Shown here in pieces: positions 45,751 to 63,067 of a stretch of 64,000 bases of DNA; position 1 is the stretch's first letter, and the number at the start of each line of letters is the position of its first letter. Below the pieces are notes generated by a model. That model saw only the letters and a program-made list of their open reading frames with translations. It did not search any database and was not told the DNA's origin. Location of the stretch: NCBI GenBank assembly GCA_963717525.1, contig OY970343.1:2016001-2080000 (forward strand), written 5' to 3'. Source of the DNA: an uncultured Methanoregulaceae archaeon (GTDB lineage Archaea > Halobacteriota > Methanomicrobia > Methanomicrobiales > Methanospirillaceae). The translations under genes and the position numbers were made by a program.

Positions 45751-48432
45751 TTACGCTGCGATAGCCTCGTTCCACTGCCGGATCAGGTCGGGCAGCTGCC
45801 CGTCAAAGACCCGGTTCGCTTTGCTCCACCCGCCGACATTCGTGAAGATTGGGATACTATCAAAGTCGTCCATCCTGATTGAGAGGTTCGCAATTAAATG
45901 TTCACGGATTTTGTCAAGCCACTGCTGCTGTTCGGGGGTCAATGTGGTTGAGACGGTCATCTTGTCGAAGACCCGGTGGATCCGCTGCTCTGCGGTACAG
46001 AGCGGCTCCTCCTCGCGGGCTGCATGCTTCACCATCGAGATGATATCCACGAGCGCCTTGTTGTACCGCACCTTGTGAGCCATCTGGAGGTTCTCAACCG
46101 TGAACCGGTACCGGGTTGCCGCCAGTTTCTGCTTTAACTCGGAGAGGGCATCCGTTCCCCAGTCTTTCGGCCGGTCCAGCAGGATCCGGATCGCCTCGAT
46201 ATGCTCCGGATTCTCTTTTACAAACTGTGAGAACGCGAGAAGATAATCCTCCGGCTTGTACTCGTGTCCCGCCGAATCCCGGATTAAATACCGGGAACTG
46301 ACTGTATCCACATTCTCATACGCAACCAGCAGCGAGCGCTCGGGCCGGGGATAGTGGAGTAGCAGGTCCTGGAACGCCGGGTTCCGGAGGAGCGTCATCG
46401 TCCCCGTGAAATCTTGCCCGAAGGCGTGCGGCAGATCGCTTGCATAGCGTTTCAGGTTGCCTTGCGGGACATATGCAGCGAACAGATCACGGGCATGCCC
46501 GCTCATCTCCTTGTCGATCCGCTGGAGTCTCCGGACCAGGATCCGGACATTATAGTCCCGGTCCCGGTTGTCCCAGATATCCTTGATTACCTGCACAATC
46601 GATCGTGTTTCCTTCTCGGGCGGCTCTGCGGTGATCCCGGTTGCCTGCCGGAAATATTCGAGCAGCGTCCCGCCAAAACAGTCGAAGACGACAAAGTGGG
46701 ATTTATCAGTGAACCGTTCGCCTTTGCGGGTCCCCCTCCCGAGCATCTGCTCGAAGAGGATACGGGATTTTACCGGTCGCAGGAACACAATAAACTCAAG
46801 ATCCGGAATATCAACACCGGTTGAAAGCATGTCTACGGTCACCACAACCGCCGGCATCGGCCGGTTCCTGAACTCGCGGATATGCTGGAGTGGCCGGTCA
46901 ACCTTGCCCGTGATCTTCTGGACAAACGAATCTCCCTTCCCGAACACGTCCCGCGCAATATCCACCAATTGATCCGCATGGGAGGTATGCGACAGGTCAT
47001 TCACGGCAAAGATCAGGATTTTCGGGAATCGCCCAAACCGCTGCTCGTGCTCTTCCGCATATTTCCGGATCTCGGAAAGGATCTTCCGGTTGGAATCCGG
47101 GGAGGTGATCGACCGCTCAACTTCAGTCGTATCGAACTGCCGCTCGTCCTCCATATTATCGAATGACTGAGCACCCGATGATGCATTGATCATCCCGACC
47201 TGCTCGCCGGCCTGAAGGAAGATCCCATTCATCCGCACATTTGAATCGAGGGCAACCGCATCGTAGTCCACGAGGAATCCTTCCCCCACGGCCCGGGCAT
47301 AATCGTACCGATACACGATCTCCCGGAAATACGCCATCGTGTGAGCCGCCGGGGTCGCCGTCAGACCGATCTTGATCGCATCGAAATGATCGAGTGTTTT
47401 GCGCCACACCGATTGCTCCGCAGCGGTATATCCCCGGTGACATTCGTCCGCGATGATGAGATCGAAGGCATGGATCGGGATATCCATCTGCTCCGCATCC
47501 TCATCGATCGGTTCATCGCCGGTGCCAAAAACCGCGTTGCGACCGAAGAGGTTGATCGTCATCCGCTGGATCGTGCAGATATAGACAAAAGCATGACCGG
47601 GTTTTGGCTCAAGGAGGTAATTCGAGGGAATCACTTTGGGATCGAACTTCTCATCATCCTCAAAATCCTCCCGGAAAAATCGCTGGCTGTAGACCTCGTA
47701 AGACTTGTCAAACTTCAGCCCCGGCCGCGCTTCAAAGGACGCAAACGCCTTGACTGCCTGCGCAGCAAGAGCCCGGCGATCTACAAGGAACAGGATCCGT
47801 TTTGCAACACCGGATTCCATCAGCCGGAACGTCTCGTTTACCATCGTGTAGGTCTTGCCGGTCCCGGTCGCCATCGCAACGAGCATCTGGCGCTTCCGGT
47901 CCCGGATCGCCTGCTCGATCGCCGCGTTCGCTTCGGCCTGGTAGGGGCGGAGCATCGGGTGAACATTTTCCCATTCAAGAAGGCGCTGACAGGAAATCTC
48001 AAATTTTTCTTTGAGTCGTTCTGCCAGTGCATCGGGTGTATGGAATTTTGCGATCGTGCGTGAACGGCTCAGTGGATTACGGATATCGTGAAACCAGATG
48101 ATTTCGCCATTTGTGGAATAGAGAAAAGGTGCACGAAATCCGGAAAAGTTAAACGGACTTTTCGAAATTCCCTGAGCGTATCGTTCGGCCTGAGTAAGGA
48201 CATTCTGAGGGCCGAGCGTGAGCTTCTTTGCTTCTATCACCGCGACAATTTTTCCCTCAAGACAAAGTGCATAATCTGCCGGTCCGTTATCTGTTGGAAA
48301 TTCTTCAAGAGCGTACTTGGAGTATTGCGAAAGATCCATCCCTGATTGATAAAGTGTAATGGACCAGCCCGCAGATCTCAGCTGCGGATCAATCCTTTTT
48401 TTCCGTGTCACCACTTCAGGTTCTTCGCTCAT
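45751..48432 (-). CDS. hsdR: Type I R-M restriction subunit (EcoEI/EcoAI-like)
   Basis: PADY...IEAK nuclease motif, MATGTGKT, DECHR, TATP, QMLGRGTR. Confidence 0.93.
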   Translation of the reverse strand: MSEEPEVVTRKKRIDPQLRSAGWSITLYQSGMDLSQYSKYALEEFPTDNGPADYALCLEGKIVAVIEAKKLTLGPQNVLTQAERYAQGISKSPFNFSGFRAPFLYSTNGEIIWFHDIRNPLSRSRTIAKFHTPDALAERLKEKFEISCQRLLEWENVHPMLRPYQAEANAAIEQAIRDRKRQMLVAMATGTGKTYTMVNETFRLMESGVAKRILFLVDRRALAAQAVKAFASFEARPGLKFDKSYEVYSQRFFREDFEDDEKFDPKVIPSNYLLEPKPGHAFVYICTIQRMTINLFGRNAVFGTGDEPIDEDAEQMDIPIHAFDLIIADECHRGYTAAEQSVWRKTLDHFDAIKIGLTATPAAHTMAYFREIVYRYDYARAVGEGFLVDYDAVALDSNVRMNGIFLQAGEQVGMINASSGAQSFDNMEDERQFDTTEVERSITSPDSNRKILSEIRKYAEEHEQRFGRFPKILIFAVNDLSHTSHADQLVDIARDVFGKGDSFVQKITGKVDRPLQHIREFRNRPMPAVVVTVDMLSTGVDIPDLEFIVFLRPVKSRILFEQMLGRGTRKGERFTDKSHFVVFDCFGGTLLEYFRQATGITAEPPEKETRSIVQVIKDIWDNRDRDYNVRILVRRLQRIDKEMSGHARDLFAAYVPQGNLKRYASDLPHAFGQDFTGTMTLLRNPAFQDLLLHYPRPERSLLVAYENVDTVSSRYLIRDSAGHEYKPEDYLLAFSQFVKENPEHIEAIRILLDRPKDWGTDALSELKQKLAATRYRFTVENLQMAHKVRYNKALVDIISMVKHAAREEEPLCTAEQRIHRVFDKMTVSTTLTPEQQQWLDKIREHLIANLSIRMDDFDSIPIFTNVGGWSKANRVFDGQLPDLIRQWNEAIAA

Positions 48433-49094
48433 GGAGATTCAAGACCGGTCAATAATATAGAATTTTTATAAATCCTCAAACGTTATGTGTTACGATTCAA
48501 ATTATGAAAATATTCGCTCACACATAATCTTCACGAAAATTTTCTGGAACGCCCCTCATTCAAATCCCTCTCTCTCATCCCCTCCCCCTCCCACCGCCTG
48601 TCTTAAAAACCCCGCCCATATACCGCCCCATTCGCCAAAATACGCCAAAATTGAGCCCCATATAATGCCCGTAATCGGCCCATAGCGGCCTTTCTGCAGC
48701 CTCTTTTTCCGGGATCATACAAAACACAAACGGCCCTGAGATCGGCCAAAGAAACGCGAATACGTGAACCGTTTATTTCGTCCGATTGCAAAAATAAGGC
48801 TGAACTGGGCTTATTTTGAAAAGAATCCCGATACGGGCTCCGTTTGGGTACCGGAAGAGTGAATCCGGGCTCAAATCGGGCCCGGATGAGCTCAGCTCAG
48901 GACCAGTCCTGCGGGGGGTTGGCGTGACAGGATATGATACATTTTGTACTCAACCGAATACATTCTCAAGTCGTACGGGAGGCGCCCGCCCGTTCGCGAG
49001 CCCCGAATGCGATCACGGGGCCGCGGTCCCGGCAAAAAAGATCACAGCTGTGCTGGCCGGTCCTGAACGCGAAAAAAAAAATTCTGCAGGATTC

Positions 49095-52395: not shown

Positions 52396-52599
52396 TCAGA
52401 AGCCGGCCAGCCGGACCATGGCACCGACAATGATGCCAAACATGGAGGAGGACGCCGATAGCATCCCGAGCAGGATGTACCCGGCCACGACCCCTATTTT
52501 AAGCGGTGTATAGGTACGGTTGATGTTGAGGCGCCGTACCGTACGAAAAGGCCTCACATCGGCAGAGATCTTCGGCTTGTTCTTCTTGATCCGGAACAT
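52396..52599 (-). CDS. Small basic membrane protein, hypothetical
   Basis: 67-aa ORF with basic N-terminus and hydrophobic C-terminus; GGAGG upstream of ATG. Confidence 0.5.
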   Translation of the reverse strand: MFRIKKNKPKISADVRPFRTVRRLNINRTYTPLKIGVVAGYILLGMLSASSSMFGIIVGAMVRLAGF

Positions 52600-52839
52600 G
52601 GTCGTTTTCCTCCGGTGTTTCAATGGGCCGTCCTCTACAGCCCCCGGCCGGGATATCCTGAGATATGCTATACTATGGACAGGACATATTTAATATTTTT
52701 TTATTGGGGTAAATAAAAAAAACGTGAAAATTTTTGATTTTATTCTTATTAAGGGCAGAATTTTCAGTTATTTGTAATGTTTAAGGCGATATACCTGAAT
52801 TAAGGGAGAGTACCCTGAAAAAAAGGGTGTGAATCCATA

Positions 52840-52924
52840 CGCCGAGGGGGAGATTTGAACTCCCGAGGCGCGAAGCGCCAGTAGCTTTCGAGGCTACCGC
52901 CTTCCCGGGCTAGACTACCTCGGC
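52840..52924 (-). tRNA. tRNA-Ser(CGA)
   Basis: Reverse strand GCCGAGGTAGTCTAGCCCGGGAAGGCGGTAGCCTCGAAAGCTACTGGCGCTTCGCGCCTCGGGAGTTCAAATCTCCCCCTCGGCG: acceptor stem, GTAGC/GCTAC anticodon stem with CGA, long variable arm, GTTCAAATC T-loop. Confidence 0.96.
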
Positions 52925-53082
52925 ACCCGGTTCAGATCATTTTCTTTGCGATTCCACTAATAGTTATCCCTGTATTTTCTCCCGCCCGGCAGAGGCCGGC
53001 ACTTCGTACAGGAACGGGGGTGCCGCTCGATGGTTTGCAAAAACAGACCATTAAAAAGATGGCTGGATATTTTTGCCCGGGC

Positions 53083-54681
53083 CTACGCCATGGGCGGCAT
53101 GGACGGGGCATTCTTGGACTGCGTAATCATCATGTCGTCGACACGGATCAGCATGATGGCAGTCTCGGAGGCACTCTCAATAGACTGGCGCTTTGACCGG
53201 AGCGGTTCAAGCACTCCCTCGCCGAGCATATCGATGATCTCGCCGTTATAGACGTTGAGACCGGCAGTCTTCTTGCCCTTTGCATGGGCGTTCTTGAGCG
53301 CTACCAGCTTGTCGATCGAATTGTACCCGGAGTTCTCTGCAAGAGTACGGGGGATCGTCTCAAAAGCCTTCGCATACCCCTCGATTGCAAGCTGCACACG
53401 GCCTCCGACCGTCTCTGCGTAGTCCCGGATCTTCATCAAAAGCTCGGTCTCGACTGCACCTCCGCCGACAACATAGGTCCCGTCCTCGATTGCGTCCATG
53501 ACCACGCGGGTACCGTCAACGACCGCACGCTCGAGTTCGTCGAGCAGGTAGTCGCTTGTGCCCCGGATGAGGATGGTAATGGCCTTGGGGTTCTTGCAGC
53601 CGGAGATCCGGGTGATGTCGGTGTCGTTGTCCTCTTCGACAACCTCTGCATGACCGAGATCTTTTGCGGTCAGGTCTTCGGGCTTGTTGACAATATTTGC
53701 ATTCAGCGCCCGGGCGGCATACTTGAGATCCTTTTCCGGGACATCCTCAACCGCATAGATGCCGTTCTTGGCAAGGAAGAACTGGACCGGGTCTGCGATG
53801 CCTTTCTGGCAGAACACCACGTTCGCCCCGGCATTAACGATAGCATCGGCGAGCTTCCTCAGGGTTGCCCGCTCCTGTTCGGAGAAGGCAGCAATCTGGT
53901 CGGCAGTCGTGATCTTGATCTTCGCCTTTACCTGCGTTTTTGTGATCTCCATGGGAGTCGCGATGAGCGCGATCCTGGCCGCAGTAACTTTCTTTGGCAT
54001 ATCTTCGCTGACCCGTTTCTTGTCAAGGATGATGCCCCGGACGAGTTCGGCGTCGTTCATCGACCGGCCCTTCTGCTTCTTGATCATCACGTCGTCTTCA
54101 TCGGCGAGGTACTTGCCGTTCGTCTTCTCCGCGATGGCCATCACTGCGTCAACGATGATGCCGTCGAGTTTTTCCTTGACCGATTCGATTGATTTGCCGG
54201 TGATCGCGGTGTCGGCAATCTTCAAGAGCGTCTTTCTGTCCCTGGGATCTACCTTGAAGGAGAGCGCGTCGGTAATTTCGAGCGCCTTTTGCATACCCTG
54301 CCGGTATCCCTGTGCGATTACGGTCGGGTGGATGCCCTGCTCCAGCAGGTCCTCTGCCTGCTCCATCAGCGACCCGGCAATGACAACGGCCGTGGTGGTT
54401 CCGTCCCCGACCTCGTCATCCTGGGTCTTTGCCACTTCGATGACCATCTTCGCACCGGGGTGCTGGACCGAGATTTCCTGTAATATTGTCGCGCCGTCAT
54501 TGGTGATGACAATGTCACCGGTTGAATCGACGAGCATCTTGTCCATGCCCCGGGGGCCCAGCGTTGTCCGGACCGCACCGGCAATCGCTTTTGCGGCCAT
54601 GATATTCGAGCGCTGTGCCTCCTTGCCGGTGTTACGCTCCACATTGTCTCGTAAAATGATGATTGGTTGACCAGATAACAT
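53083..54681 (-). CDS. ths: Thermosome subunit (group II chaperonin)
   Basis: TLGPRGMDKM, ITNDGATIL, GDGTTT, GGGAVE. Confidence 0.96.
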   Translation of the reverse strand: MLSGQPIIILRDNVERNTGKEAQRSNIMAAKAIAGAVRTTLGPRGMDKMLVDSTGDIVITNDGATILQEISVQHPGAKMVIEVAKTQDDEVGDGTTTAVVIAGSLMEQAEDLLEQGIHPTVIAQGYRQGMQKALEITDALSFKVDPRDRKTLLKIADTAITGKSIESVKEKLDGIIVDAVMAIAEKTNGKYLADEDDVMIKKQKGRSMNDAELVRGIILDKKRVSEDMPKKVTAARIALIATPMEITKTQVKAKIKITTADQIAAFSEQERATLRKLADAIVNAGANVVFCQKGIADPVQFFLAKNGIYAVEDVPEKDLKYAARALNANIVNKPEDLTAKDLGHAEVVEEDNDTDITRISGCKNPKAITILIRGTSDYLLDELERAVVDGTRVVMDAIEDGTYVVGGGAVETELLMKIRDYAETVGGRVQLAIEGYAKAFETIPRTLAENSGYNSIDKLVALKNAHAKGKKTAGLNVYNGEIIDMLGEGVLEPLRSKRQSIESASETAIMLIRVDDMMITQSKNAPSMPPMA

Positions 54682-54734
54682 AGGTGATCCTCTAATGCTG
54701 TAAAAGGTGGAATTGAACTTCTATATATATCATT

Positions 54735-54757
54735 CCCTTAGTGGTTCTGTTGCGTCT
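54735..54757. repeat. Left target-site duplication CCCTTAGT (54735-54742) and left terminal inverted repeat GGTTCTGTTGCGTCT (54743-54757)
   Basis: Exact reverse complement of 61053-61067; the same 8-mer follows the right end. Confidence 0.93.
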
Positions 54758-54876
54758 TAGGTTGATCGTTGCATTTGCCCCATGCTGTTGCATCGCGGTT
54801 GATATGCGCGCGGGTGTCTTGATGCATTATTCCTATTTTAATAAAAATTATTAAAATAGAAATGGCTATTAGGATT

Positions 54877-55158
54877 ATGAGCTCAATCGAATCATCTTTT
54901 GCTAATGTGTGGGATTCGGTTTGTAAACACGAGGGAGAACTTTTCCATACCAAAACAGGATTGCCATTTACTTACTGGACAAAAGGAACCTCGTTATACG
55001 TCGATAGAACAACATGGGCAATAAATCGCAAAAACCTATTATATGCCTACGGGTTGTGGCCGGTATCTGGACCCGGTGTTTTTAATAATGCTGTTAGAGG
55101 GCCTGCATATGTTTGGGCGATTTTTGCTGATGGTAGGATCATAAAAACCGGAGATTGA
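54877..55158 (+). CDS. Small hypothetical protein coupled to HNH gene
   Basis: 93-aa ORF (FHTKTGLPFTY...RGPAYVWAIF.D.RI); stop 1 nt before the HNH start. Confidence 0.6.
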   Translation: MSSIESSFANVWDSVCKHEGELFHTKTGLPFTYWTKGTSLYVDRTTWAINRKNLLYAYGLWPVSGPGVFNNAVRGPAYVWAIFADGRIIKTGD

Positions 55159-55159
55159 T

Positions 55160-55933
55160 ATGATTAACGTTATTCTATCGAATTTAGAATCTATCAAGAA
55201 ACGGCATTATGCCCAAAAAGCAAAATCTACCGGTTATTGGGTTGCATTTTATGAAAGTGTATTAAACAGATATAAAGCACAATTCGGAGAGGATTTTAAT
55301 TTAATTATATATGGTGACGAGAATCTCCGAGATGATTTTTTCTCCATTCCTTATATACAACTAAAAGATTTCTTGACAGAACCCCATATAGACGAACAAA
55401 AACGAAGATGGGTTTTCAGCATTGAAAACAACATACTCCGAGCACATCGAAATCCCAAGAGAGTTGATATAATGGAATTTCGTGGGAATATAATTGACAT
55501 TCAACCATTATACCAATATCAAACAGTCAAAGATTTGAATAAACTACAGCAGAGGAAAGAAGATACTTTTCAAAAGGACGCCGAATGGTTAAGCCAAGAA
55601 GAATTGATGAGGCGGATTCAATCGCTAGATAGGGGGGCAACACACAGGGAAGGGACCACAAAATATTATCAAAGAAGAGCGATTGTATCCGAATATGCTA
55701 AGAGAAGGGCAAATGGAATATGTCAATTATGCCAACACCCGGCGCCTTTTGTCGATATAAGGAATAAGCCATATCTTGAAGCCCACCATGTGATTTGGTT
55801 GTCCAGAAATGGGGACGATACACCTGAAAATACTGCGGCATTATGTCCGAATTGCCATAGAAAAATGCACATATTGAATATAACATCTGATCAAGAAATT
55901 ATTTTATCAAGAATTTCTGGTGGGGGAGAATAA
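55160..55933 (+). CDS. HNH endonuclease (McrA-like C-terminus)
   Basis: RANGICQLC...PYLEAHHVIWLS..G.D..EN..ALCPNCHRKMH. Confidence 0.88.
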   Translation: MINVILSNLESIKKRHYAQKAKSTGYWVAFYESVLNRYKAQFGEDFNLIIYGDENLRDDFFSIPYIQLKDFLTEPHIDEQKRRWVFSIENNILRAHRNPKRVDIMEFRGNIIDIQPLYQYQTVKDLNKLQQRKEDTFQKDAEWLSQEELMRRIQSLDRGATHREGTTKYYQRRAIVSEYAKRRANGICQLCQHPAPFVDIRNKPYLEAHHVIWLSRNGDDTPENTAALCPNCHRKMHILNITSDQEIILSRISGGGE

Positions 55934-55944
55934 ACAAAACAGTC

Positions 55945-56343
55945 CTATTCTCCCCAGTGACCGAATTCAATTAAGTCGCTTAATAAATCAAGACGGCGCT
56001 TATTCTCAACGGTATTTCGAGAATATCTGCGATATTCTTGGTAAAATTTCTCGGCCTCTTCTCGCGTCTCGATAATATACATGCCTTTATTCTTATTCGA
56101 AGCAATGAATATCCCCTCTCCGCGAAGTTTTCCCAAGACATAAATTTCCCACGAGTGGCGACTTATTTTGTGCCCTCTTTCTTTTAAAACTTTCACGATG
56201 GTGTCTGTGGGAACAGCATTTTTTATTCCAATGGAATTCTCCAACAAATAACCAACAGTATCTGTCATAACATCGACATATTTGTCGTCAGATAATTCAC
56301 CAGCAAATTCGAGAAATTCCTTAGCGGCGGTAACAAATGGCAT
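55945..56343 (-). CDS. Hypothetical protein, probable winged HTH
   Basis: Helical core then IASNKNKGMYII wing-like motif; last gene of the R-M operon. Confidence 0.55.
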   Translation of the reverse strand: MPFVTAAKEFLEFAGELSDDKYVDVMTDTVGYLLENSIGIKNAVPTDTIVKVLKERGHKISRHSWEIYVLGKLRGEGIFIASNKNKGMYIIETREEAEKFYQEYRRYSRNTVENKRRLDLLSDLIEFGHWGE

Positions 56344-56358
56344 ATGACCATCCCAATA

Positions 56359-56964
56359 TTAAGATGATGCAATTAGTAAATCCCCGGCATATAAAGCCTT
56401 ATTATTTGAGTTAAATTCTAGCTTTATGTCCATTTGATTAAGAGAATAAAGATCACAAAGTTTCCATCCCACGACTCTCCAATATTTTTCTTTCTCCTCG
56501 ACAATATTCCATGCGATTAACAGATGCCTTGCGGAAGATTTAATTTTGTTTCCATTTGTGTAGTAAAAAGATCTGAATTGGCTATCCCAATCTTTACTAA
56601 TGGCCTTTGATTCGAGATATGTAACCCTACCTGATTGATCTTTTATCATAATATCGGGATATCCAGATTTACTCAACAAAGTTGGTGTAAGTACCGATTT
56701 TTTCAATTCTTCAACAAAGGCCTCTTCTATCCTTTTCCCAACATCATTTATTCTGCCTCCCTCATACCGTTGATGAGTCCTTGTAGTGTATGCGATAAAA
56801 TTCCTCGCCGATTTTACAATCTCTTCGTTAAGGGATTTATCTAATTCCGTATTTAGATCAAGTCTAACAACATCAAGTCCCGTCGTCGATTTTACTAGCT
56901 CGGGGAATGATATTTGCCCGGTTAATTCGGAAACATCACTCATAAGTCCTTGAACGGTCGGCAT
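56359..56964 (-). CDS. Type II restriction endonuclease, PD-(D/E)XK, MjaV-like
   Basis: RINDVG, GYPDI...YLESK, FRSFY, KLEFNSNN; recalled resemblance to R.MjaV; adjacent to the MTase. Confidence 0.75.
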   Translation of the reverse strand: MPTVQGLMSDVSELTGQISFPELVKSTTGLDVVRLDLNTELDKSLNEEIVKSARNFIAYTTRTHQRYEGGRINDVGKRIEEAFVEELKKSVLTPTLLSKSGYPDIMIKDQSGRVTYLESKAISKDWDSQFRSFYYTNGNKIKSSARHLLIAWNIVEEKEKYWRVVGWKLCDLYSLNQMDIKLEFNSNNKALYAGDLLIASS

Positions 56965-56985
56965 AAAACAATAATAGTATTGTAA

Positions 56986-57843
56986 TTATTTTAAATATTT
57001 TAAAAGACCTTTGCTCTTTTTTAATCGCTCATTTGAAATTCTCTCATTGGCGAGATCGATGTACTCTTTGTCAATTTCAAATCCGATATAGTTGATACCC
57101 AGTCTAACGGCAGCTACGGCTGTTGTTCCAATTCCCATAAATGGATCGAGAACGAGCGTATCTTTGCAGATTCCGTCGTGATCTTTTATACACATCTCGG
57201 GTAATCCAACTGGGAACGCACTGGGGTGGGGCCTTGATTCTTGGATCGTTTCATATGGAATGAACCAGGTATTGCCTCGGTCTCTCAAATCGCCGCCATT
57301 TGTCGATTTCCATCTTTTTATATTGCTTTTATCTTGATAGGGAACACCGATAGCTAATTTGTCTAGAGGGACGCGGCCGGTTTTTGTAAAGTGGAAAATA
57401 AATTCGTGGCAATCGTGGTGAAATCTCTTACTGTTAATTGGCTTATAATGCCCAACGGCAACATCGGCTTTAATGTGTGGGTATTTGCCCATACATTCTT
57501 TTGGTATTGCTATCGATTTCACCCAATGAATCATATTCTGAAGGGCGAAATGTTTCCGAAAGACATTTGCAACATCTATTGGTGTCCAAGGATCCGTGAC
57601 GGTTCCACCAACATTTAGGAAAAACGATCCGTCATTTTTCATTACTTTTTTAGAGGCTATCGCTACATCTTCCATCCATTCAAGATATTCATCCCCCGAT
57701 TTTGTATCCTGATATGTTTTGTAGGCTATTCCAATATTGTAAGGTGGCGACGTTACAATTAAATCAACAGAATCCGCACCCAGTTTTTCAAATCCTTTTA
57801 AACAATCCATTTTGTATATTTTATTGGGGACCAACTTTTCCAT
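56986..57843 (-). CDS. Beta-class N4-cytosine DNA methyltransferase, M.MjaV-like (predicted GTAC)
   Basis: TSPPY before DPFMGIGT (beta order); the region VGHYKPINS...[18 protein letters not shown]...[15 protein letters not shown] closely matches M.MjaV as recalled. Confidence 0.88.
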
Positions 57844-57852
57844 GATTGAACG

Positions 57853-58035
57853 TCACCCCTCCTTTCTGATTGGTTTCACAACTAAATGATCCCCCTCTAT
57901 AATCCATTCAAGAGAATCGCCTTTCTGCAAGTTGAATTGGTTTTTGATAAACGAAGGTACTGTAGTTCTCAGCGAGTCTCCAGAAGATGTTGCTGGATTT
58001 AAGATTGTCTCGTTAGCTCGCGGATTTTTTGGCAT
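57853..58035 (-). CDS. AbrB/MazE/SpoVT-type DNA-binding protein
   Basis: SLRTTVP..I...FNLQKGDSLEW swapped-hairpin signature; first gene of the R-M operon. Confidence 0.8.
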   Translation of the reverse strand: MPKNPRANETILNPATSSGDSLRTTVPSFIKNQFNLQKGDSLEWIIEGDHLVVKPIRKEG

Positions 58036-58074
58036 AATGTAATGGTATATCTATCTTATACATTATAAATTTTG

Positions 58075-58181
58075 TTACCTTATATACTATAACTCAATTT
58101 ACCTTATGGATTGTTTATTTACCTAATGGGTTACCAATAAGTTTATTACCTTGTATGACTTATAGGTAAATAGAGAGGTAA
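58075..58181. promoter_or_regulatory. Array of TTACC(T) motifs in the divergent abrB/transposase promoter region
   Basis: TTACC at 58075, 58099, 58119, 58131, 58146 and inverted AGGTAA at 58164, 58176. Confidence 0.6.
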
Positions 58182-58186
58182 ATTAA

Positions 58187-59371
58187 ATGAAGCAACTAAC
58201 CGACCCAAGAGAATTAAGAGGACTGGCAATCATCAGCCAGCCCAACACCGTTATCCAGACCGGTGAAAATGAATGGGACGTTCGATCACAATCAAAGGAT
58301 GCCTATTACGTCGTATCCAGAACTTTCCCGTCAGACCGGAAGGCTCGCATCCTCTCACAGGCAACATGGACATGCTCGTGCCCCGACTTCCAGACCCGCC
58401 ATATGCCGTGCAAACACATCCACGCCGTCATGCTCTCGTTAAAACTCGCCGGGGATGTAGAGGGACACAGCACACCTGCGCAGGTTAAAAATGCCGAGCC
58501 AACGATCCTGTGCCCGGCCTGCAAGTCTGCAAGCGTCAGGAAATGGGGGAGCCGCAAGACCCAGTACGGAACCATCCAGCGGTACGCCTGCCATGAATGC
58601 GGCCATACCTTTGTGATCGATAAAGGATTCTCCAAGATGAAAAACAGCCCCAAAACGATCACCCTCACCCTTGACCTTTACTTCAAGGGGGTATCCCTGA
58701 GGAAGATCGCCGACCATCTTACACAGGTTGAAAGCGTCTCCGTCAATCAGGCAACCATTCTCCGGTGGATTCGCAAGTACCTGAAACTGCTATCGGGATA
58801 TGCTGAGAAGTACAAGGCTGATGTCGGAAACATCTGGCACTGTGATGAGACAACGGTATTCATCAAAAAAGAAGGCGAGAAAAAGTATTACGAGTGGATC
58901 TGGAACCTGATGGATGCAAAGACACGATACCTTCTTGCTTGCCAAGTCACTGAAACCCGGTACATCAAGGATGCGCGCAGACCGCTGAGCAAAGCCAAGG
59001 AAGTTACGGAAGTTCGACCGGATGCGATTGTGACCGATGGACTCATGGCATACAAGGACGCGATAAAGGCAGAATATTTTGGACTCGGCAGAATCCAGAA
59101 CCCCCATATCCGCCTTAAGGACTTTGAAACTAAGCCGAATAACAATATCCTTGAACGCCTGAATGGAACATTCCGAGAGCGCACGAAAGTTATGCGAAGC
59201 TTCGACAGTGGGATTGGCGCGGCGGAATTTGCCGCTGGAATGCAGACATATTACAACTATATCCGCCCCCATCAGGGAATCGGTGGAATGGTACCTGCGC
59301 AGATGGCAAACATTCCACTGGATTTAACCGGTAACCGCTGGATGACAATGATTGGGTTGGCGGTAAAGTGA
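58187..59371 (+). CDS. IS6/IS240-like DDE transposase with N-terminal SWIM and Zn-ribbon domains
   Basis: SWIM CSC..F....CKH, CPAC...CHEC ribbon, HTH, WHCDET / VTDG / NNILERLN catalytic triad, YYNYIRPH. Confidence 0.9.
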   Translation: MKQLTDPRELRGLAIISQPNTVIQTGENEWDVRSQSKDAYYVVSRTFPSDRKARILSQATWTCSCPDFQTRHMPCKHIHAVMLSLKLAGDVEGHSTPAQVKNAEPTILCPACKSASVRKWGSRKTQYGTIQRYACHECGHTFVIDKGFSKMKNSPKTITLTLDLYFKGVSLRKIADHLTQVESVSVNQATILRWIRKYLKLLSGYAEKYKADVGNIWHCDETTVFIKKEGEKKYYEWIWNLMDAKTRYLLACQVTETRYIKDARRPLSKAKEVTEVRPDAIVTDGLMAYKDAIKAEYFGLGRIQNPHIRLKDFETKPNNNILERLNGTFRERTKVMRSFDSGIGAAEFAAGMQTYYNYIRPHQGIGGMVPAQMANIPLDLTGNRWMTMIGLAVK

Positions 59372-59444
59372 GCTTTAAAGGAAACGTTTAATATTTTGAT
59401 TTTATAATGTTAATTACAAATATACTGTCTGTTAAGGTGCAAAA

Positions 59445-59972
59445 TTGGATTTTTTTATCGATTCTGGAGTTGTTATAGGGTATTCTGACACAGGGGATGA
59501 AAAATTTCATGACCCATGCAAAGAATTTATAAGAAAATTCCCTCCAAAAGAAAACGGGTATCATTCGATAAAATATATTGTAAATGAAGAAATACGGAGT
59601 ACTGAAAAGAAGAGACTCGAACAAAGAAAGAAAAATGCACTCAAACTATTCCCACAACGTGCGAAAATATTTTGTGATTTAATAAACGATGTTGCAAATA
59701 AATCGCATTTGTCATTTGATACTCTTTTTAAACAAATACATGATTATTTAATAGCGGTTCGTACTGACCTTAAAAGAAAAGAACACGATGCGAAATTGTT
59801 AACGAGTGCTTTTATTTGGGCATATGAAGATGGAACCTTACAAAATCCTCATTTCATTACTACGGATTGGACGGATATTTGTAAAAACAAACCTAAACTT
59901 TATAGTTTTGTAACGTCTTGTCTCCCTAAAAACTGTTTAAAGATAAGTTTTGTTATCGACTGCGTCTCTTAA
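59445..59972 (+). CDS. PIN-domain-like protein
   Basis: FFIDSGVVIG N-terminal Asp, EE, HDAKLL, FITTD..D acidic pattern; TTG start. Confidence 0.65.
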   Translation: MDFFIDSGVVIGYSDTGDEKFHDPCKEFIRKFPPKENGYHSIKYIVNEEIRSTEKKRLEQRKKNALKLFPQRAKIFCDLINDVANKSHLSFDTLFKQIHDYLIAVRTDLKRKEHDAKLLTSAFIWAYEDGTLQNPHFITTDWTDICKNKPKLYSFVTSCLPKNCLKISFVIDCVS

Positions 59973-60889
59973 CAGGGTTTTAACAAATTAAGTAACTCTA
60001 TTTTCTCATCTTTATTCATTTGGTTTAAGGATTTTTCAATCTCATAATCCATATCTTCGAGGGTGGGAATTAAATTATATCTTTTCACCTTATCTTTCAG
60101 TGCCGTAAAATTATTGGATAGGCCCTCTATCTTTCTTTGAGAATTGGATTCGTATGCCCCCATCTCATATTCAATATTGTCCCCTTTTAACGTGAGAACA
60201 AATGGGAAAATAAATGTGGATATTTCGTTTTCATACATGTTATTGAAGTCAGAGAGGATTTCTTTTACATGGTTAAAATTGGTGTCTCTGTTTCTACAAA
60301 CCATCAAAACACCTTCAAGTAGATCCATGTAATCAAAATAGAGAGGCAAATATTTTTCGTCAACGTGGTTTAATGTGGAATCGAGATTTGAAATTATATC
60401 CGAAAACGTATCATAGAATTTTCCTATATCAACCTTTTTACATTCTGACGCTTCCCCAATTATATCATGAAAAGCGTCATGCCATTTGTATAATGCTTGA
60501 TATTCTGGGGATATCCTATCCTCGTGTGCATATTTTAAAAATTTTTTCCAAGTTCCTGTCATTATTGGTTTCAAGGTGACGATGATGGGCTTTACCATTT
60601 CAACAATTTCAAAATTCACAATACTTTTGTTGATATTTGCTCCATGAAGAGAGCGCGTTACAAAAATTGGTTTTGTTATGCTATGCGCCTGAAAAGAAAA
60701 TTCTCCATGTTTAAAACACCCGTATGAAATTTGACGATACCCAAGATCTTCAATTGATCTTACAACTAGCTTCACAGCTTTGGTTAGAACAACCTTTTTC
60801 CTTTTAGTGGAATACTCTTCATGAGCGGCAAAAAGGATTGAGTTTATTATAACACTTGGTGGGAGTTTGTTGATATCTTCGATATCCAT
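59969..60889 (-). CDS. Hypothetical protein with weak SocA/Panacea-like N-terminus
   Basis: LTKAVKLV...YGCFKHGEFS resembles the Panacea KL..Y...W..GP motif; start uncertain (60889 or 61018). Confidence 0.5.
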   Translation of the reverse strand: MDIEDINKLPPSVIINSILFAAHEEYSTKRKKVVLTKAVKLVVRSIEDLGYRQISYGCFKHGEFSFQAHSITKPIFVTRSLHGANINKSIVNFEIVEMVKPIIVTLKPIMTGTWKKFLKYAHEDRISPEYQALYKWHDAFHDIIGEASECKKVDIGKFYDTFSDIISNLDSTLNHVDEKYLPLYFDYMDLLEGVLMVCRNRDTNFNHVKEILSDFNNMYENEISTFIFPFVLTLKGDNIEYEMGAYESNSQRKIEGLSNNFTALKDKVKRYNLIPTLEDMDYEIEKSLNQMNKDEKIELLNLLKPC

Positions 60890-61052
60890 TTTCCACCCGA
60901 AACTATTGTAGACACATTTCTTGAGAGGATAGATAATCCTTTTGATATAATATTTGATATTAAATAGACGCACTGCTGCCCAATATCTCTTGCTTGCGCG
61001 CGAAGGATCAACCTTCATGCAACACCAACCGACAACCCGGTTGATCCACCGC

Positions 61053-61075
61053 AGACGCAACAGAACCCCCTTAGT
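61053..61075. repeat. Right terminal inverted repeat AGACGCAACAGAACC (61053-61067) and target-site duplication CCCTTAGT (61068-61075)
   Basis: Mirror of 54735-54757. Confidence 0.93.
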
Positions 61076-61098
61076 GGCTCTCAGGAAAAAGGAATGGA

Positions 61099-61704
61099 TT
61101 AATCGATACGGGAGATCTTGAAGAGCGAATAGACCGGCACGCCATCAATATCCTTTATGCCGCGCTTGTCGAAAATGACCCATATTGCTACCGGGACTGC
61201 CCCGTGTTTCTTGAGATACTTGACGACCTCCCTCATCGTGTTCCCCGAGGTGATCACGTCATCGACAATAATGCAGCGTTCCTTTGCGACAGGAGCAAAG
61301 TTTCCGCTGATCGACCCGACCGGGTGATCGCTCGTGTTCTGCTTCGAAGGATGGTAGATGGCAAGCTGTGCCGCCTCCTGGACAGAGATGATTGTTGCAA
61401 GGGGAATGCCGGAAAGAGCAATTCCCACGATAACGTCTGCTGAGGCTGATGCCGGGTCTTCCTGTGCACCGTAATACCGGTTTAAGAGCATCAGGGCAAT
61501 CCCGTCAAGCAGCGGCGCCTGGCTGCTCACGGCAGTCCAGTCGATATGGACATCCTTTGGCGCTGCCGCCCCGCCGTTTGCCTGGGTTAAAAGCCAGGTC
61601 ACCGTTTCCATGGAAAGGGAGAGCTCGTCTGCAATCTGGCCGGGGCTGTGGCCTTCGGATAAAAGGAGTTTTGCCCGGGCTATCAGATCATCAAGGGAAG
61701 ACAT
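61099..61704 (-). CDS. gfcR: PyrE-like phosphoribosyltransferase with N-terminal HTH (GfcR family)
   Basis: [36 protein letters not shown] motif. Confidence 0.82.
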
Positions 61705-61724
61705 GAAAAAAGATTTGTGGTAAT

Positions 61725-62180
61725 CTATTTAAGTTTTCGTTTAATTATTGAGCCGCAGACCGGGCATTCCCCGTCGGTTTTGAAATAACGGCCGCAGCCG
61801 CTGCACCGGTATTTCCAGCGGATTTTTTTTGCCGGCCGCTGCTGGAGCGGCTGTACGGGAATTCCGAGGCCGGCCGCTACGTTCTGGATCGCAAAATCGT
61901 CCGTGAATATGGTCGCCCCGAGCTCCCCGGCAAGGGCGAGGATATCGCAGTCGGTACCCGATATCACGGCAAGATCTCCTGACCTCCCTGCAGCAGCATG
62001 GACCCGGTCAAGTCCTCCGGAGTCCGGCTGGCAGACCCGGAGCCCGGCCTCCACGAGAAGGTCGTACCGGCATTTGCTCGTAAGGTCTTTGAGCTCAGCG
62101 ACTACGGACGGCGTGGTGTAGCACTCCCCGGTCACCGGGTAATCCGAAAAAAAGACCGTGGCATCAAGGACGCATTTCAT
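61725..62180 (-). CDS. nob1: Endoribonuclease Nob1 (PIN plus Zn ribbon)
   Basis: [21 protein letters not shown]...CPVCG. Confidence 0.9.
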
Positions 62181-62221
62181 GGTCGCTTCTCACCTGTACC
62201 TGGGGATAACCGGGTACCCGG

Positions 62222-63067
62222 TCAGCTCCTCAGGGCAGCCGCAATGCTTACTGCCGCCGAGAGCCGGCTGCATCCCCGCTCGATGGTATCGCTGCAGAAT
62301 ACGTCCCGGATCCCGCTCGCCTTCAGGTGGACGTATGCGCCTCCGATAAGCACGCCATGGACGCAGCCAGCGTAAACGTCGGTCGCACCCTGTTGGTACA
62401 GCATTTTTGCCGCCGTCGCTATGGTCCCTCCGGTCGAGATGATATCGTCAACGATAACCACCGGGCGCGAGGCAGCACAGAGCTTCTTTGGCGCCATCTT
62501 CACCTCGATACCCGAGAGCCGGGTCTTTTCGAGGTGATCGCAGTCCCATCCTCCCGCGGCTGCGACACCCTGTGCAAAGGCAAGGGCCCCGTCATCGGGA
62601 GCGAGAATCAGGGGATTGGACAGGCCCATGGTCCCGATGCAGGCGCCCATATCCCCCGCGAGCGAAATATTGGTGGCAGGCACCGGGAAATACTTCAGTA
62701 CTGACGGCTCGTGGATGTTGACCGTGATGCAATCCTCCACTCCATTTTTGAAGAGCCGGGCGATGGCGCGGGCGCTGATCGGCTCCCCGTCCCTGAACCG
62801 TTTGTCCTGTCGGGCGTACCCCATGTACGGGAGTACGAGGTGATTTTGTGATCCCTCGCAGGCATCGATCAGCAGGAGCAGCTGGACGAGCGCATCGCTT
62901 TCGGTGACGCTGCCGACAATAACGGTCTCATCGTCGAGCTCTCCGGCCTCAAGGTAGAGCTCGCCATCAGGAAACCGTGAGAATTTCACATCGACCATGG
63001 TCGTGTTCAACGCCGTGGCGATACGGGCCGCAAGAATCTGGGATTTTTCCGTGCTGATCACTTTCAT
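62222..63067 (-). CDS. prs: Ribose-phosphate pyrophosphokinase
   Basis: FPDGE, PYMGYARQD, APDDGA, VDDIISTGGT. Confidence 0.95.
   Translation of the reverse strand: MKVISTEKSQILAARIATALNTTMVDVKFSRFPDGELYLEAGELDDETVIVGSVTESDALVQLLLLIDACEGSQNHLVLPYMGYARQDKRFRDGEPISARAIARLFKNGVEDCITVNIHEPSVLKYFPVPATNISLAGDMGACIGTMGLSNPLILAPDDGALAFAQGVAAAGGWDCDHLEKTRLSGIEVKMAPKKLCAASRPVVIVDDIISTGGTIATAAKMLYQQGATDVYAGCVHGVLIGGAYVHLKASGIRDVFCSDTIERGCSRLSAAVSIAAALRS

Follow-up and report, generated by a model that had tools for sequence, protein, structure and literature searches.

For the IS6 family of insertion sequences (IS) a 14-bp TIR (terminal inverted repeat) consensus has been given by Harmer and Hall, who argue that archaeal and long members should be placed outside the family (PMC6807381). 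A review of IS6 names a single member with a passenger, ISDsp3, which carries one hypothetical gene (PMC7986276), and according to a 2019 survey no cargo-carrying composite DNA transposons had been detected in archaea (PMC6563490). According to two further reports, the retroelement Ty3 integrates harmlessly within a short interval upstream of genes, where TFIIIB, which contains TBP, positions it (bioRxiv 2021.07.27.453949), and ISAjo2, of the IS1202 group, inserts 5 bp from a host-protein site, for which direct contact with the host protein has been proposed (PMC10132070). Here we describe a 6,325-bp element in a stretch of 64,000 nucleotides (hereafter the window) from an uncultured Methanoregulaceae archaeon (contig OY970343.1, positions 2,016,001 to 2,080,000). 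It appears to have inserted recently and to belong to a family of archaeal cargo transposons that target promoters and are apparently undescribed; a literature search, in which subscription papers, supplements and IS tables were little covered, found no description of the family, of its targeting or of comparable precision in archaea.

The element begins at position 54743 of the window with GGTTCTGTTGCGTCT, and the exact reverse complement of this sequence (15/15) ends at 61067; over 25 nt the arms are 88% complementary (22/25). The left outer TIR, of about 24 bp, occupies 54743–54766 (plus strand) and the right one 61044–61067 (minus strand). They are enclosed by a perfect 8-bp target site duplication (TSD), CCCTTAGT, at 54735–54742 and 61068–61075 (both plus strand). 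Assuming equal base frequencies, perfect inverted pairs of 15-mers are expected about 1.9 times per 64 kb and are unremarkable alone; a pair combined with an 8/8 flanking duplication is expected about 3e-5 times. Both ends are bipartite: the end motif recurs 38 bp inward (54786–54803, plus strand; 61007–61024, minus strand), probably as a second transposase site, a feature absent from the initial annotation. Contigs of run X10, whose study is not flagged as a possible source, span both junctions. The GC content of the element is 0.39, compared to 0.545 for the genome; local GC dips (0.44–0.47) were also seen outside it, at 48000–48500 and 52500–53000. Inside lie one intact DDE transposase gene and eight other open reading frames (ORFs). 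Thus, the end pair, the flanking 8-mer, the length and the content of one transposase with eight passenger genes within a single TIR pair, as proposed in an initial annotation of the window, were borne out by a recheck of the sequence, ORF analysis and profile searches. The recent insertion between gfcR and the thermosome promoter that it proposed likewise agrees with the perfect duplication and with a transposase ORF that is open and retains catalytic residues D220, D284 and E323.

The host gene on the left is the thermosome gene ths1 (53083–54681, minus strand; 532 aa; Cpn60_TCP1 4e-172, NCBIfam thermosome_alpha), and its promoter is the target. A putative TATA box, TATATATA (54722–54729, minus strand), recognized from its sequence, position and conservation among relatives, lies 5 nt from the duplication. 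On the right, the stop codon of an intact gfcR/PRK02277-like gene (61099–61704, minus strand) is 23 nt from the duplication; the product of this gene matches NF002620 above the cut-off (3e-75) and NF045507 (GfcR_Halo) below it. Comparison with homologous units suggests that this location is a programmed target and not an incidental one, a point absent from the initial annotation.

The comparison took in 130 loci: 31 on contigs of genomes, 77 drawn from 193 matches in metagenomes, 20 regions that were fetched, and 2 loci of the host genome itself. An end pair with an 8-bp duplication was found in 63 of them, and de-duplication left 58 distinct single units of 1,116–10,983 bp (median 4,868 bp), 52 with perfect duplications, which have 46 different sequences. 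G is present at positions 1 and 2 in all of 116 ends and at position 7 in 99%, and the inner motif stands at the 38-bp offset in 87. The ends nearest to the transposase gene were at least 345 bp upstream and at least 262 bp downstream of it (53 units); homologous transposases share distant TIR pairs and are never closely flanked, so that two of the conditions named in the initial annotation as refuting it did not materialize. The second unit of the host genome (C1:1834962–1838924; 3,963 bp; transposase 76% identical; duplication TCTTAAAA) sits at the promoter of the second thermosome gene, ths2, at the same spacing, with an older decayed unit across TCTTAAAA that has its end at 1838933. Element ends also occur at C1:414303 and 520460, at the same spacing from an hsr and a cdc48-type promoter; no matching far duplication was found for these two ends, which may be adjacent deletion products. 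At 32 of the 63 loci the duplication has a further end immediately on its other side. Repeated insertions thus stack into tandem arrays in which single duplications separate the units, and in L114 at least three complete units follow one another.

In 41 of 52 arrays, exactly 5 nt separate the duplication from a TATA box downstream of it, so that the duplication occupies positions −13 to −6 relative to the first TATA base. Counted over all 76 outer flanks, with no choice of side, a TATA-like 8-mer was present at offset 5 in 40 and at the next best offset in 4; the background is 0.0022 per position upstream of genes. The targets belong to a narrow set: 43 of the 52 arrays are at promoters of thermosome, Hsp20, Cdc48-type or heat-shock-repressor genes. 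Forty were assigned by script (ths2 19, ths1 6, cdc48-type 6, hsp20 5, hsr 4) and three by inspection (L101, L108, L111); Pfam confirmed the identity of the target gene in 7 examples. At some cdc48-type promoters the downstream sequence is just a short fragment resembling cdc48, behind which lies another chaperone-like gene. Among the other nine arrays, two have a TATA box at offset 5 and three a CTAAC motif at offset 22 with a weak TATA box.

A search for the pattern that made no use of the transposase gave 57 matches in 43 of 228 genomes, compared to 2 for a reversed control. Within the genus, 37 matches were at the target spacing, compared to 31 over six shorter spacings, 4 of which were echoes of the same sites. 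By our own reading of 30 pattern loci, 23 are heat-shock-type promoters (two of them end relics), 4 are real ends at other promoters and 3 are chance-like. In clades only 36–50% identical, from other families of the phylum, the same spacing was observed at hsr, ths and cdc48 promoters, as well as at what we take to be a tRNA-like and a valS-like gene. We conclude from these sequence comparisons that targeting in the element family is very probably anchored to promoters.

Several observations weigh against this conclusion. Of the arrays outside the heat-shock set, one is offset (L032), two fit neither rule on the flank scored (L046, L124) and one is truncated (L099). No TSD-matched pair was present in 67 of the 130 loci, many of them short contigs, and these were left unscored. 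Nineteen of the 52 arrays are at the same ths2 promoter, and some loci are near-duplicates. Target labels placed on a quick tree (L039 excluded) require 27 changes, compared to a minimum of 6, and are therefore interleaved; shuffled labels require 39.7 on average, so the labels cluster and the arrays are not fully independent. This clustering is what would be seen if the element were an untargeted IS6-like transporter, with its promoter location left by purifying selection or vertical inheritance, and survival bias towards intergenic sites is common. Selection, however, gives no single-base registration. Insertions face either way (24 versus 19 in total, 4 versus 5 at ths1), and units of opposite orientation and different cargo occupy one site with the same duplication in two cases (L084 and L227; L072 and L074), L084 and L227 having different ends facing the promoter. 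Since the ths1 site is, in addition, empty in 19 of 19 relatives examined, untargeted insertion is strongly disfavoured.

These relatives, of other species of the genus, keep ths and gfcR at most approximately 105 bp apart. The initial annotation had predicted an empty site with a single copy of the 8-mer: near-adjacency of the two genes was found throughout, while exact CCCTTAGT was found in none of the 19, the three nearest carrying single-copy variants matching at 6/8, 6/8 and 5/8 positions. The predicted type of allele is represented by L217, a single-copy allele of the filled sites L084 and L227 with a common 8-mer. Contigs of four runs over the site showed no empty-site or circle joint, which, contigs being all that was searched, does not imply absence; run X13, in which pieces of the interior are covered, does not represent an empty allele. 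In run X16, from a related strain, contigs over 53500–62500 enter the left end by approximately 30 bp and the right end by 25 bp and leave the interior nearly uncovered; the site may there hold a different unit with its own cargo.

Relics of ends remain at the ths1 site of some relatives, approximately 100 bp starting with the same end in L003 and 10 bp in L004/L219 and L217. Since these sites are otherwise empty, the ths1 site was apparently occupied and vacated earlier. Relics and tandem arrays together suggest one more explanation, in which new units are attracted, as with IS26, to pre-existing ends or relics, and old founder insertions account for the promoter location; the end found across the duplication at 32 of 63 loci and the 10-bp relics of L217 and L219 are what it predicts. 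It fares poorly with the many units that abut plain host sequence on both sides (L021, L029, L056, L066, L067) and with the fact that each unit has its own 8-bp duplication. Founders would, moreover, need the same spacing at more than 10 unrelated promoters, and we regard this explanation as very improbable.

With promoter-anchored targeting, new units would be expected to enter an array on the promoter side, since it is the promoter that fixes the target; at ths2 in the host genome the decayed unit is the distal one, which fits this order. Outer array ends have one duplication in common, so arrays could move whole. Recombination between tandem transposase genes could also swap cargo arms. Elements of the IS6 family move only by forming cointegrates, through a copy-in or a targeted conservative route; a single unit between matching duplications is compatible with a resolved cointegrate and with simple insertion alike, and the sequence fits copy-in as well as cut-and-paste movement. 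The duplication restores its 8 bp, and the core promoter sequence is unchanged.

Positions −13 to −6 from the TATA box are the upstream edge of the TFB recognition element. We propose that docking beside TBP/TFB on the promoter may lead the transpososome to its target, in the way that Ty3 docks on TFIIIB. A repressor of the Phr/HSR1 type could hold TBP/TFB on the promoter while excluding RNA polymerase, making a long-lived platform, and heat-shock promoters would be favoured because such a repressor retains TBP/TFB there. According to a review, Phr prevents RNA polymerase from being recruited to the TBP/TFB complex, and HSR1 binds CTAAC-N5-GTTAG (PMC9133787); according to another paper, thermosome, Hsp20 and VAT are heat-induced in Pyrococcus (PMC3038420). 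The host genome has four TBP and two TFB genes (C1, approximately 440, 502–503, 974, 1293 and 2121 kb), including one adjacent TFB–TBP pair; specificity of the paralogues could shape target choice. Two unoccupied promoters, of the ths2 and cdc48 types and presumably preceding grpE/dnaK-like genes (C1:867115 and 530946, minus strand), are predicted to be further targets.

Two other ways of finding the promoter have to be weighed against docking. The transposase may read the DNA itself, a bendable TATA-type sequence plus a downstream half-site, in the manner of TnsD at attTn7 and with no host protein. Its extra zinc domains could bind DNA, SWIM-less relatives retain adjacency to TATA boxes, and the CTAAC half-site is confined to offsets 22 and 23 (16 flanks), sites with a poor TATA box included. 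The targets at ths1, ths2, hsr and the tRNA-like and valS-like genes, however, have little beyond the TATA box in common, and while the host genome contains 110 strict and 4,768 loose TATA-type 8-mers, the four promoters that carry an end at the target spacing are all of the heat-shock type. Direct readout therefore appears rather unlikely.

The same half-site raises the prospect that an operator-bound HSR1/Phr-type repressor tethers the transposase. This would account for the 43 of 52 arrays in the heat-shock regulon, for CTAAC-N5-GTTAG or a one-base variant at the same spacing in hsr promoters of distant families, and for the half-site with weak TATA in L036, L060 and L090. The operator offset, however, moves by 1 while the insertion remains fixed to the TATA box, ths1 and ths2 promoters, with 25 of the scripted arrays, lack the motif, and promoters outside the regulon are targeted at the same spacing; a repressor tether is accordingly quite improbable. 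Because CTAAC shifts between 22 and 23, TATA stays at 5 and ths promoters are without CTAAC, the TATA box is the more constant ruler. The shifting operator, the ths promoters and the non-regulon targets together favour docking beside TBP/TFB over direct readout and the repressor.

Docking is itself subject to counter-evidence. Sites with CTAAC at offset 22 and a poor TATA box (L025, L036, L060, L090) favour operator or direct DNA readout. SWIM is not required, since the SWIM-less homologues L171–L173 also insert beside TATA boxes, 5–6 nt from the duplication, which weakens the idea of SWIM as sole targeting module. Tethering is argued from position in the sequence, from which we infer the protein contact, and the promoter and repressor roles in these methanogens are read from motifs. 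Predicted complexes of the transposase with TBP and with the TFB core scored 0.01 and 0.00 (mark 0.32) and were used neither way. We give tethering by TBP/TFB about an even chance of being the cause of targeting. Taken as a whole, the data are probably best explained by archaeal cargo-carrying unit transposons, each with a single transposase, aimed at promoters mostly of the heat-shock regulon.

The transposase (58187–59371, plus strand) is a 394-aa protein with a SWIM domain (residues 58–85), a Zn ribbon (109–143), a helical/helix-turn-helix region and an RNase H-like DDE core; both the SWIM and Zn-ribbon domains named in the initial annotation were found by profile search. In an alignment of 93 sequences D220 and E323 are invariant and D284 is present in at least 90%. 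A single-sequence structure prediction gave a predicted local distance difference test score (pLDDT) of 33; repeated with the alignment, it reached 92. The core matches the folds of retroviral integrases, IstA and TnsB (Z approximately 15 for these) and of the ISCth4 transposase. Fold searches were dominated by this core, residues 5–91 matching ZSWIM8 only at Z 6.2.

Passenger genes lie on both sides of the transposase gene. On the left, an ORF of 98 aa without a family, which falls in a cluster of 3 (54862–55158, plus strand), is followed by an HNH endonuclease of 257 aa resembling type IV methyl-directed restriction enzymes (55160–55933, plus; PF01844 8e-10, PADLOC mREase_IV 2e-18). On the minus strand lie a 132-aa ORF without a family, in a cluster of 4 (55945–56343), downstream of a restriction-modification pair: a type II restriction endonuclease-like protein of 201 aa (56359–56964; PADLOC REase_II 3e-17) and a type II N6/N4 DNA methyltransferase of 285 aa (56986–57843; PF01555 9e-48, PADLOC MTase_II 2e-121). 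A small AbrB/MazE-type DNA-binding protein is encoded divergently from the transposase (57853–58035, minus; PF04014 3e-6) and is a possible regulator; as a core gene of the family it was not supported, a similar gene being present there in only 8 of 53 units in a tblastn test of low sensitivity. To the right are a 175-aa ORF (59445–59972, plus), with no Pfam match at the cut-off and, as a lead, an Atlas feature score of 0.90 to a cluster with 28% PIN members, and an ORF of approximately 349 aa (59969–61060, minus) from an archaeal family of no known function. The longest call of the latter overlaps the right end, and its real start is probably near residue 15; a weak SocA/Panacea-like structural lead (TM approximately 0.5 by row) is below the bar of the tool. 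Thus, four of the eight ORFs are without family, and of the cargo proposed initially the restriction-modification and HNH genes stand, while the "toxin–antitoxin-like" part would depend on the AbrB-type gene and the weak PIN lead.

Cargo across homologous units is highly variable, with 393 ORFs falling into 229 clusters, the largest cluster among the cargo consisting of methyltransferases (20 proteins, 17 loci). PADLOC matches at 1e-6 were obtained for 32 of 143 cluster representatives. Most of the remaining cargo is without a family (40 of 64 rescanned had no Pfam match), so that defence cargo is demonstrated for part only. L072, L074 and L084 resemble the element at their ends (97–99% over the first 59–69 bp) and in transposase DNA (82–87%) without having its other cargo, L084 additionally having the AbrB-side stretch.

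Homologues, full-length or partial, turned up in 31 of 401 genomes from the order and in 28 of 401 from the phylum, and at E ≤ 1e-30 there are 317 protein clusters. Named records are mostly Methanoregula and other Methanomicrobiales, which suggests a methanogen of this kind as host. No relative was found in viral contigs searched with the single protein and no match among archaeal plasmids in the plasmid collection. The SWIM-less homologues L171–L173, of approximately 290–300 aa and from other families of the phylum, belong to units that carry cargo and end in GATTCTG motifs; in L163 the unit is adjoined by such an end. A different unit transposon of 3,041 bp (L149, C1:287167–290207) encodes a transposase of the SWIM + DDE_Tnp_1 type; its ends are not those of the element, its duplication is 9 bp long, and it carries an AbrB-like gene and tRNA-like sequences. 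Its relatives (L177–L185) occur in 8 of 228 genomes of the family, likewise just upstream of genes. The SWIM region of this group is homologous to that of the element (34% over 90 aa) and its DDE_Tnp_1 core is unrelated; its TATA matches are weaker, and it shares arrays with the element family in L034, L120 and L126. The genome also contains 36 palindromic units of 79 or 92 bp with ends resembling those of the element, clustered at approximately 141–152, 793–795, 1105–1141, 1302–1307 and 1693–1734 kb of C1, between genes in variable islands and with no TATA registration. None of 24 tested has a duplication of at least 5 bp. These may be miniature inverted-repeat transposable elements (MITEs) moved otherwise, or cassette boundaries. 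An integron attC reading was rejected because the GTT/AAC order is reversed relative to the attC consensus. A two-MITE composite was rejected for the element: the palindromic units have an inverted second end, which element ends lack, and none of the 24 has such a duplication.

These data point to a widespread archaeal family that moves restriction-modification and other defence genes with base-level registration on TATA boxes, and offer a possible account of the nucleation and growth of defence islands at fixed loci in methanogens. A wider reading, held tentatively and at slightly below an even chance for all its parts together, is a Ty3-like co-option of basal machinery in archaea: DDE transposases of two unrelated catalytic families would dock on TBP/TFB, having acquired the same SWIM module, and CRISPR-like polarized arrays of defence cassettes would build up at repressor-stalled heat-shock promoters, which would serve as programmed safe harbours and as growing defence islands. 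Whether a prokaryotic transposase uses TBP/TFB as Ty3 uses TFIIIB is a testable question, and the family suggests that one protein could serve as a tool for site-specific insertion of several kilobases in methanogens.

Comparison with the systems introduced above places the element nearest to the IS6 lineage, though the assignment to "IS6-family" made initially holds as resemblance only. The DDE core matches PF13610 (IS240/IS6-type) at 55.4 bits (cut-off 27), the duplication is 8 bp, and the ends match GGTTCTGTTGCAAA at 11 of 14 positions, with the GG start and G7. In contrast, the score against NF033587 is 113.6 bits, below the equivalog cut-off of 125. IS6 elements are approximately 700–890 bp (up to 1,760), with an ORF that nearly fills them and transposases of 213–254 aa (340–450 in long clades), whereas here a 394-aa transposase gene is central in 6,325 bp, with cargo on both sides, an extra SWIM domain, bipartite ends and strict promoter targeting; the median unit of the family is about 4.9 kb, compared to about 0.8–1.8 kb for the ISCpe7 group. 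Its nearest named relatives are transposases of the ISCpe7 group (clade h of Varani, clade VII of Harmer and Hall), which likewise has long members and an N-terminal Zn ribbon (29–30% identity over residues 109–386); the best matches in the plasmid collection, long Clostridium-type members, are 25–30% identical, compared to the at least 40% to core bacterial members used for IS6. Pseudo-compound IS26 transposons also move passenger genes with IS6-type ends and need two directly repeated IS copies; the element has one transposase and one end pair, and no inner inverted ends were found near the transposase. The initial reading as a transporter IS, with passenger genes and one transposase inside one TIR pair, does describe it.

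Likenesses in targeting lie elsewhere, Ty3 and IS1202 being the nearest precedents in function. Tn7 and its relatives are cargo-rich units whose ends hold multiple sites; they insert into safe sites that lie a set distance from a recognized sequence, and they can stack. Tn7 makes a 5-bp duplication and inserts in fixed orientation at one att site. The element shares the cargo-rich unit, multi-site ends, fixed-distance safe site and stacking, while its family uses a set of promoters, and profile searches found neither TnsC (AAA+) nor TniQ/TnsD among its eight ORFs. With IS1202 (ISAjo2) it shares a single DDE transposase and an extra transposase site inside each end. IS1202 differs, as far as the available account goes, in TGT...ACA ends, a 5-bp duplication, dif/pdif targets, fixed orientation, a length of 1.5 kb and no cargo described, compared to GG...CC ends, 8 bp and a promoter target here. 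Ty3 is a long terminal repeat retroelement at Pol III genes, with tethering shown structurally, while the element is a DNA transposon for which tethering is suggested by position; what the two have in common is insertion at a fixed distance from a TBP site.

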